NCBI GenBank assembly: GCA_965203055.1
Contig: OZ241863.1
Coordinates: 3,360,001 to 3,424,000 of the forward strand
DNA: 64,000 nt
Direction: 5' to 3'
Source of the DNA: Spirochaetia bacterium
Lineage (GTDB): Bacteria > Spirochaetota > Spirochaetia > SZUA-6 > Bin103
In this document: positions 23,146 to 25,000 of the stretch, piece by piece
Position numbering within the stretch: position 1 is the first letter of the stretch
How the letters are laid out: each line of letters opens with the position of its first letter
Notes under the pieces: generated by a model
What the model was told of the DNA's origin: nothing
Databases searched by the model: none
Seen by the model: the letters and a program-made list of their open reading frames with translations, nothing else
Made by a program: the position numbers and the translations under genes

Positions 23146-23249
23146 CGACGACACGGTGGGGCGCACTTCCAAAAATGGGGGTAAGCGTCGGGCCGCTTGG
23201 CGGCCAAGCTCAAAGTCCCAGTGTAGATGACGTTTCTCGGCGATCTTGA

Positions 23250-24611
23250 TCACCGGTCTACCGGCGCCTGACGATCCTCGCCGGGGCGGTCGAATCCGGC
23301 GCCGGCGTGGCGGTAGCGGTGATGGGCGGCGCACAGCAGGCGGAGATTGTTCGGCTCGGCGGCGCCGCCGCAGGCATACGGCACCACGTGATCGATCTGC
23401 AGCAGGTGTTGGGAGCCGCAACGGCGCCCGCTGGTGCGGTCCACGTAGCGGCAGCGGCCCTGGTCGCGCCGCCACACCTCGCGCTTGACCGCCGCCGGGA
23501 TGGCGCGGCCGGTCACGCCCGGCTTCGCTGCCGAAGTCCGGGTCCGCGGCGGCGCCGCCGGCTGCGCGCACGCCGCAGCCTGCCGGTCGAGGCGCCGCGT
23601 CTTCGGCGCCGAAGTTATGTCGCCCCCCGGCTTCGCTGCCGAAGTGTCCGGGCGGTCAGCGGCTTCGTCTCCCGGCTGCGCCGCCGCCTGAGCCGATGCC
23701 TTCGCCCCCGAAGGAACGGCGCTGTCCGCGCTGGCCTCTTGCTTCGCTGCCGAAGCGGCTCCGCGAGCCGAGGCCGCCTGCGTCTTCGGCGCCGAAGTTT
23801 GCTCGGCGCCTTTGGCCGGCGCGGCGCGCCGCCCGCGCGGCGGCCGGGCCGGGTCGTGGCGGTCGAGCCCTTCCCGCACCAGCCGCCCCATGAGCTGCCC
23901 CATCGTCAGGTGCGGATCGACGTGCGACAGGAGGCCCTGGAGCCGCTCCAAGCCGCGCCGGCACTCATCGTCGATCACCGCCTTGAGCTCCCAGCGCCCG
24001 CCGCCCAGGGGCCGCACCCGCTCCGCCGGCGCCGCCAGCTCCGGGTCCACCTCGGCCAGCAACTGCGTCACCTCCCGGCTGCTCTTGCCGGACGCCTGCT
24101 CCACCAGCTCCCGCCGCGCCTCCGCGTCCAGCACCGGCGGCGCCGCCGCCGCCGGCTTCCGCTCCGCCGGCCGCGGCGGCGCCGAGCCCTCCTGCGACTG
24201 AGCGGCAGCCCCGAACCCGGTCCCGCGCGGCGCGCTACGCGCCGCGCGTTCCTTCTTGCGCTCCTGCCGGTCGAAGGCGTTCTGCAACTGCGCCGCCGCG
24301 TTCAGCGTCATCGTGCCATTCTGCAGGCGCTCCCGCACGCCCTCGACGTCCGCGCAGAGGCGCATCGCCTTGATGCGCCGCCACGCCGCGGCGTCGCTGT
24401 AGCCCAACTCACGCACCGCGTAATCGAACAGACTCGAGAACCCGCGCCGCAGGTACAGACGCCGCTTCTGAATCTCGCGCAGGTGGTCGATCACGACCAC
24501 TTCGAGATGGTGTTCGATGCCGGACAGTTCCTTGGTCCGCTCCAACAGGCGGTCGTCTGAGAGGGCGGATACGGTAGTGGTGACGGCCCCGTCTGAACCC
24601 TGTTTGTACAT
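23250..24611 (-). CDS. HNH endonuclease with a DUF222-like N-terminal helical region and a low-complexity linker
   Basis: GFSSLFDYAVRELGYS N-terminal motif; VWRRDQGRCRY...C...IDHVVP...GG...NNLRLLCAAHH. Confidence 0.88.
   Translation of the reverse strand: MYKQGSDGAVTTTVSALSDDRLLERTKELSGIEHHLEVVVIDHLREIQKRRLYLRRGFSSLFDYAVRELGYSDAAAWRRIKAMRLCADVEGVRERLQNGTMTLNAAAQLQNAFDRQERKKERAARSAPRGTGFGAAAQSQEGSAPPRPAERKPAAAAPPVLDAEARRELVEQASGKSSREVTQLLAEVDPELAAPAERVRPLGGGRWELKAVIDDECRRGLERLQGLLSHVDPHLTMGQLMGRLVREGLDRHDPARPPRGRRAAPAKGAEQTSAPKTQAASARGAASAAKQEASADSAVPSGAKASAQAAAQPGDEAADRPDTSAAKPGGDITSAPKTRRLDRQAAACAQPAAPPRTRTSAAKPGVTGRAIPAAVKREVWRRDQGRCRYVDRTSGRRCGSQHLLQIDHVVPYACGGAAEPNNLRLLCAAHHRYRHAGAGFDRPGEDRQAPVDR
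23523..23797. repeat. Six CTTCG-N4-CGAAG palindromes within the HNH linker
   Basis: Copies start at 23523, 23601, 23631, 23700, 23742 and 23784; they encode SA(A/P)K or SGAK. Confidence 0.85.
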
Positions 24612-24617
24612 GACATA

Positions 24618-24646
24618 AGTATAACCATGGAAACTACTTGAGTCAA
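24618..24646 (-). promoter_or_regulatory. Near-consensus sigma70 promoter of the HNH gene, probably giving a leaderless transcript
   Basis: TTGACT-17 nt-TATACT-6 nt-ATG; palindrome ACTTGA-G-TCAAGT (24636-24648) overlaps the -35 box. Confidence 0.75.
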
Positions 24647-24716
24647 GTTTTCAGCCCGGAAGATGCCACATGCTGGCGTGACTCGGCGGCGCATTTCGAA
24701 GCGGCTGGACGTTCCT

Positions 24717-24926
24717 TCAGATGCTACTGCCGAGATGTCGCCGGCGTCGAGCGGCAGGGTTCTTCTTACGGACCCAGGCGGCCTCGTCGATCTCCTGGTC
24801 GAGGAAGAGGTCGCAGGCGGTGGAACTGTCGCTCCAGCCGCCGACGTCGAGCGCGGCGCGGTCCATGGCGGCGTGCAGCGCGGCGCGGTACTCGTAGTAC
24901 GCCTTTCCGGCGGCTTCAAGGGCGGG
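24717..24926 (-). pseudogene. Degenerate C-terminal fragment of a type IIG/IIL-like restriction-modification methyltransferase
   Basis: Manual translation PALEAAGKAYYEYRAALHAAMDRAALDVGGWSD...FLDQEIDEAAWVRKK resembles the LHAAMDRAVLDAYGW C-terminal motif. Confidence 0.6.
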
Positions 24927-24971
24927 ACAGGTACCAGCAAATTAGATTAAGAAGTGCGCCCACACGGTGGC

Positions 24972-25000
24972 TTGACCCCTCTCATCGACCGGCATAGTGT
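24972..25000 (+). promoter_or_regulatory. Putative sigma70 promoter of the kinase/ATPase triad
   Basis: TTGACC-17 nt-TAGTGT, 55 nt upstream of GTG 25056. Confidence 0.5.

Follow-up and report, generated by a model that had tools for sequence, protein, structure and literature searches.

A transposase-less cassette with ISKra4-type ends carries an intact HNH gene in a Spirochaetia bacterium

Multicopy genes of the REP13E12/DUF222-HNH type encode proteins with a helical N-terminal half and a C-terminal HNH domain. Here we describe an HNH gene that lies, as the only intact gene, in a small cassette without a transposase, within a 64,000-nucleotide stretch (the window) of contig OZ241863.1 of a Spirochaetia bacterium. 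The genome holding the window, G000, is a one-contig assembly from a mixed community and contains dozens of similar repeats.

Two described kinds of mobile DNA come closest. Mobile insertion cassettes, according to excerpts of two accounts (PMC6199540, PMC3129680), consist of two inverted repeats of insertion sequence (IS) type around a passenger gene, lack a transposase, measure 0.7-3 kb and have a cognate IS. The ISKra4 group of p-MULT4 (Mutator-like) elements is characterized, in the main text of its description, by GGG...CCC termini, inverted repeats of 18-39 bp with a conserved terminal base, and duplications of 8-9 bp, with extra genes in some members (PMC3942029); its insertions, in either orientation, lie about 15 bp (13-17 bp) upstream of a -35 box (Guerillot et al. 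2014, PMC3942029). That text, outside a supplementary element table which may bear on the point, mentions no HNH passenger, and literature searches listed no description of the present cassette.

The cassette resembles MIC231 of Bacillus cereus, which is moved by IS231, as far as the excerpts describe it: IS-type repeats enclose a passenger, no transposase is present, and the cognate IS is in the genome. It differs in that its ends are of ISKra4 rather than IS4/IS231 type, in that some 30 copies of one passenger outnumber the IS, and in its composite origin with an internal repeat relic and a passenger conserved after the ends have decayed. It shares with the ISKra4 group, as the main text presents it, the termini, the 8-9-bp duplications and insertion upstream of -35 boxes, but without the p-MULT4 DDE transposase it is a derivative and not a member IS. 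The cassette is a mobile insertion cassette, and not an IS, an IscB/TnpB element or a member of Pfam DUF222; we file it so because its dispersal by an ISKra4 transposase in trans is well supported. The explanation as a whole, namely a transposase-less cassette with ISKra4 ends and an intact HNH gene that was likely transposed in trans, with self-conversion of the gene as a proposal, has in our estimate a probability of about 0.75.

The cassette and its dispersal

From tip to tip the cassette spans 1,803 bp, with one open reading frame (ORF) intact, that of a 453-amino-acid HNH protein, and no transposase. Its tips are the 11-bp inverted repeat GGGCGCACTTC, and the 8-bp direct repeat ACACGGTG flanks it (Table 1), all exactly where an earlier note on this DNA had placed them. 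The terminal repeats had there been called perfect, which holds for the 11-bp tips; the full ends are imperfect repeats of 25-30 bp that match the left and right ends of the IS. The left-type end of the window copy contains a small insertion. Over about 30 bp the right-type end resembles its counterpart in the resident ISKra4 element, and it probably includes the last codons of a sister transposase gene; this segment has 37 matches in G000 and four in a related genome, G011, and none in 22 other genomes of the family. An inverted repeat next to a direct repeat is by itself only modestly unusual in G000, a genome of 69% GC whose first 1.5 Mb contain six such 11-bp plus 8-bp pairs outside the family. 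The pattern is real because the genome contains the 11-mer of the tips 57 times, for the most part at the termini of ISKra4 IS copies and sister cassettes. Contigs of the public run X2, perhaps made from the source sample, span both cassette junctions without a single difference, and six of the 22 sequencing runs listed carry the label sponge metagenome.

Table 1. Features of the cassette and its borders; positions are those of the window.
Feature	Position	Strand	Evidence or remark
Target-site duplication, left copy ACACGGTG	23151..23158	.	repeat comparison
Right-type end: terminal repeat and short 3' spacer	23159..23249	-	end comparison; perfect tip 23159-23169
453-amino-acid HNH gene	23250..24611	-	ORF, domain matches, structure prediction
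Six CTTCG-N4-CGAAG palindromes in the linker	23523..23797	.	conserved as DNA
Own sigma70-type promoter of the HNH gene	24618..24646	-	promoter scan
Internal relic of a terminal repeat, facing the HNH promoter	24687..24699	-	repeat comparison
Multicopy Type IIG-like restriction-modification gene, three scraps of its 3' end	24717..24928	-	
Left-type terminal repeat, matching the IS left end	24930..24961	-	end comparison; perfect tip 24951-24961
Target-site duplication, right copy ACACGGTG	24962..24969	.	repeat comparison
Host promoter-like site beside the insertion, upstream of the NERD-kinase gene	24972..25000	+	

The partner IS is present at nine loci in G000, eight of 1,523 bp and one deleted to 1,256 bp, and all nine have duplications of 8-9 bp. 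Its 467-amino-acid transposase matches the NCBIfam ISKra4 model NF033572 at 214.5 bits (cut-off 205), and the HNH gene and the transposase gene run in the same direction relative to the matching ends. The genome also holds 60 cassette-like loci, 32 of them with a near-full HNH ORF (mutual identity 91.9-96.1%). Among 22 two-tipped cassettes, 11 keep an 8-9-bp duplication of their own, one mismatch being allowed, whereas mismatched pairs gave one in 6 of 462 cases; for one of the 22 an end coordinate is about 50 bp off, and by eye it has no duplication either way. The earlier note had offered a non-autonomous cassette moved in trans as one reading and had proposed a search for further copies of the ends, also at HNH paralogs, for different duplications and for an autonomous partner. 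All of these were found, and the same-ended autonomous ISKra4 and the differing duplications of other copies support that reading. It had also proposed to look between livM and the kinase gene for an empty site, where ACACGGTG would stand once. No empty site was found in relatives (the right flank after livM is shared by 0 of 14), in metagenomes (no matches) or among the paralogous flanks of 23 cassettes.

The choice of insertion sites points the same way. Of 77 tips, a set from which nine false tips had been dropped by eye and to which nine IS right ends had been added, 11 have the start of a promoter-like -35 box at a distance of 14-17 nt, with 0-3 in each of the other bins. This peak upstream of promoters is the specificity reported for the ISKra4 group in the main text cited above (PMC3942029). 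At the window locus a host -35 box, TTGACC, lies 10 nt from the tip with TAGTGT as its -10 box, and this promoter-like site is likely to have been the target of the insertion. We consider it highly probable that an ISKra4 transposase moved the cassettes in trans by a Mutator-like route.

The interior of the cassette records something of its origin. What the earlier note took for a methylase relic are indeed scraps of a restriction-modification gene, a multicopy Type IIG-like gene of 1,350 amino acids, but they come from its last ~150 codons, downstream of the methylase and target-recognition matches. Longer parents, in which the two ends enclose this gene followed by the HNH gene, are found at G000:2835451-2838909 and at about 1396520-1405390, and the restriction-modification gene also occurs without the HNH gene in G000. 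The orientation of the internal repeat relic toward the HNH promoter makes a composite origin probable, with shortening of the cassette by deletions. In one IS copy the distance to an HNH -35 box downstream is exactly 16 nt, which suggests that the HNH gene is captured often since it offers the promoter target that ISKra4 seeks. ISKra4-type ends are also seen just 3' of the stop codon of Uma2-like genes and of another multicopy gene family (G000:C1:1281227, 4102300, 4255029, 2493298, 3844574), so that capture is not exclusive to HNH genes.

Several other observations were made at these elements. At least five long copies of the Type IIG-like gene (G000:C1:980288-984340, 1765579-1769508, 2066957-2071018, 2594736-2598683 and about 4383956-4387885) have a common start and end and apparently different middles, and two further copies are interrupted by IS elements. 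At G000:C1:3066010-3071193 two copies of the cassette stand on either side of some 2.9 kb of other DNA within one outer 9-bp duplication, as a composite transposon. Short tandem expansions (CCTA, CCTGT, GTGA and GACT units) occur at cassette-target junctions (G000:C1:234564, 328574, 2729393, 4150662-4152291), and together with GGGACT expansions in the cassette 3' end they suggest slippage at the ends. Directly downstream of the window cassette (window:25056-35866, plus strand) lie genes for a NERD-kinase-ATPase, a mad7/SspG-like protein and a DndH/mad8-like ATPase; this three-gene run resembles the mad6-7-8 / SspFGH / DndFGH restriction module, and the cassette sits at its promoter.

The HNH protein and exchange among its gene copies

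The promoter that the earlier note assigned to the HNH gene is the only sigma70-like promoter in the region, where shuffled sequences give an expectation of 0.0. Its -35 box TTGACT (24646-24641) and -10 box TATACT (24623-24618) are separated by 17 nt, and the -10 box ends 6 nt before the ATG, which predicts a leaderless transcript; the same 6-nt spacing is common to 59 of 80 related loci. The label DUF222-like, by contrast, did not hold beyond a distant resemblance: the protein has no match to Pfam DUF222 (PF02720) at E<=1, while its HNH domain is matched at E 2.5e-6, and PF02720 is matched weakly in 6 of 67 homologues (best E 8.9e-5) and DUF222 annotated on 12% of the members of a neighbouring Atlas cluster. 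In being multicopy, with a C-terminal HNH domain, an own promoter and recombining copies, the gene nevertheless resembles the REP13E12/DUF222-HNH genes; the excerpts on the 13E12 repeats of Mycobacterium describe frequent recombination among copies (PMC13157036, PMC10589994). The spread of those repeats is unexplained, whereas IS-derived ends and duplications are evident here.

Structure prediction gives the N-terminal half a helix-turn-helix unit of ParB/KorB type (residues ~32-190) and a ribbon-helix-helix (~204-254), followed by a disordered linker and a zinc-binding HNH nuclease domain (~368-437). As to an N-terminal CTPase (ParB-box) domain, no match to the Pfam ParB family was obtained, and the ParB/KorB matches span the DNA-binding part only. 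The linker codes, in frame, for six CTTCG-N4-CGAAG palindromes, starting at 23523, 23601, 23631, 23700 (with one mismatch), 23742 and 23784, which are a candidate binding site of the HNH protein. A repeated palindrome in cis is what ParB/KorB/SopB-type proteins have in their sites (parS, O_B, sopC), and a helix-turn-helix bundle with a dimer-type beta-helix domain behind it would, as predicted, be a further likeness.

Selection was analysed on 30 near-full ORFs, one divergent copy being left out; 18 are intact and 12 broken. For private changes, the ratio of nonsynonymous to synonymous polymorphism (pN/pS) is lowest in the N-terminal domain (0.17), followed by the HNH domain (0.25) and the second core (0.44), and reaches about 1 in the first linker; by this measure, purifying selection acts on the folded domains. 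Of the catalytic and zinc residues, all are invariant across the 30 copies but for one cysteine, present in 29. No two of the 30 3' ends examined are alike; once a copy has been inserted, small deletions and slippage wear down its ends but not the ORF. Since intactness of the ORF is independent of the ends (6/11 against 12/19), and since broken copies keep the same low ratio of nonsynonymous to synonymous changes in the core domains as intact ones (27/36 against 36/39, p=0.61), the pattern fits a shared pool under selection from which ORFs are overwritten where they stand. The HNH gene is likely to have its own way to persist. The earlier suggestion that the protein contributes to mobility or retention is conjectural. 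A transposase role is unlikely, and the independence of intactness from the ends points to retention in place and not to assistance in transposition.

The copies are mosaics. Linkage between variable sites drops to the level of independence within about 30-100 bp; 72 of the 82 variable sites are biallelic and immediately adjacent sites remain linked, which argues for recombination rather than hypermutation. Two subfamilies, in G011 and in a further genome, G003, have the same linkage decay, and of the other clades two keep some longer-range linkage and one keeps much. Among control families in G000, two more diverged ones hold linkage beyond 300 bp, and a small one of 92% identity does not clearly keep it, so that the control for HNH-specific mosaicism is imperfect. 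The genome has MutS and MutL. A block that is 99.9% identical between G000 (C1:2790300-2792300) and G011 (L077) ends inside an HNH ORF, which shows that the haplotypes are real and that the copies anchor exchange between genera.

Of 18 genomes of the family, 15 carry the gene, at up to 96 matches per genome, and none of 12 genomes outside it does; a quick tree of the copies has genome-specific bursts. In the related Spirochaetia, five IS-type end types, including that of G000, bracket the gene on different branches: the type in G003 matches that genome's own ISKra4 and has a 9-bp duplication (L054), two further GGG-type ends have duplications of 8-9 bp, and a CAGG-type end has one of 9 bp (L175). 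In G011 about 11 copies form a sister subfamily whose boundaries are ragged, with terminal repeats absent from the flanks examined; these copies may be eroded cassettes or may have spread in another way. Side observations on the homologues include an HNH copy directly after a CRISPR-like repeat array (L004:1000-1400, in G015), a divergent copy without terminal repeats that G000 (C1:1319861-1321123) and G011 (L091) have in common right after an HsdS-like gene, and a subfamily of 800-1,000-amino-acid homologues (P0270-P0348), of which three were read and have the same domains with much longer linkers and a different linker repeat.

Weighing the explanations

How the gene persists is the less certain part of our explanation. 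We propose that promoter-seeking ISKra4 elements, drawn by the strong HNH promoter, would capture the gene; that the HNH protein may use its ParB-like and ribbon-helix-helix half to bind the palindromes within its own gene, and may nick nearby DNA; and that these nicks could drive conversion between copies, within and between genomes, so that working alleles would stay in circulation, and the gene would reach new sites by means of the IS ends that it has borrowed. Self-recognition with nick-stimulated conversion is tentative, and we rank it ahead of the two alternatives that come nearest to it. The gene might instead benefit the host, for example in anti-phage defence or in the response to DNA damage, as a passive passenger whose copies host-level selection would maintain and ordinary homologous recombination would shuffle, and whose palindromes would be autoregulatory operators. 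We regard this as rather doubtful: 12 broken copies among 30 with undiminished constraint fit overwriting from a shared pool better than selection at each locus, copy number runs from none to 96 matches among relatives in genome-specific bursts, and PADLOC gives a weak HNH match only. The protein could also help the cassette in cis, by cutting the vacated donor site, as TnpB/IscB proteins do, with the result that the cassette is restored there by copying, or by nicking or replicating a circular intermediate. Capture by five end types on separate branches and the excess of the HNH gene over the IS (32 to 9) would agree with such help, as would the circles that Mutator-like elements form according to the main text of PMC3942029, and conserved nuclease passengers on transposase-borrowing elements are known from TnpB/IscB of IS200/IS605, from which the cassette differs in having ends of terminal-inverted-repeat and not of hairpin type and a retention that appears to be independent of the ends. 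Against help in cis, intactness does not track mobility, and the sister subfamily in G011 has no terminal repeats in the flanks examined. Moreover, the insertion sites have no common protein-readable sequence, no RuvC domain was matched or has room in the structure model, and the IscB model NF040563 reaches 23.9 bits against a cut-off of 175, over the HNH stretch only. Help in cis is in our view unlikely.

Two further readings are very improbable. A new class of element with the HNH protein as its transposase might be thought of, since the HNH gene is the sole intact one between the ends, is conserved and has predicted DNA-binding and nuclease domains, but ISKra4, with its transposase encoded in the genome, accounts for the ends, the duplication length and the target preference. 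In other genomes close homologues have unrelated ends, each end type being confined to its own branch or branches, the ends in G003 match the ISKra4 of that genome, and no transposase domain is listed for 81 longer homologues. The variation among copies, and the mosaicism in particular, could likewise have been an artefact of assembly or polishing, as a single contig obtained from a mixed community rich in similar repeats would invite. The independently assembled G011, however, has the same haplotype, identical along some 500 bp of one ORF, the copies of the IS show no scrambling, the changes respect codon position and domain, and the same mosaic pattern is present in G011 and G003.

Meaning for multicopy HNH genes

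The vehicle is an ordinary one, yet it gives one concrete route of spread for widespread and unexplained multicopy HNH genes, and what the analysis offers for study is the protein with its candidate binding site, and recombination between copies as an outcome that can be measured. If the nuclease does promote conversion among its own copies, the HNH genes would be built-in recombination hotspots that reshape genomes and would mark the ends of DNA exchanged between genera, and the protein would be a compact, protein-targeted nickase of possible value as a tool. More speculatively, the gene may represent a new class of selfish gene, in which a ParB-like HNH nickase, palindromes within its own ORF and fine-scale conversion across species would be combined with promoter-attracted IS ends that disperse the gene without a transposase of its own. 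Such a reading, if true, would also explain the long-unexplained repeat genes of the DUF222/13E12 type.
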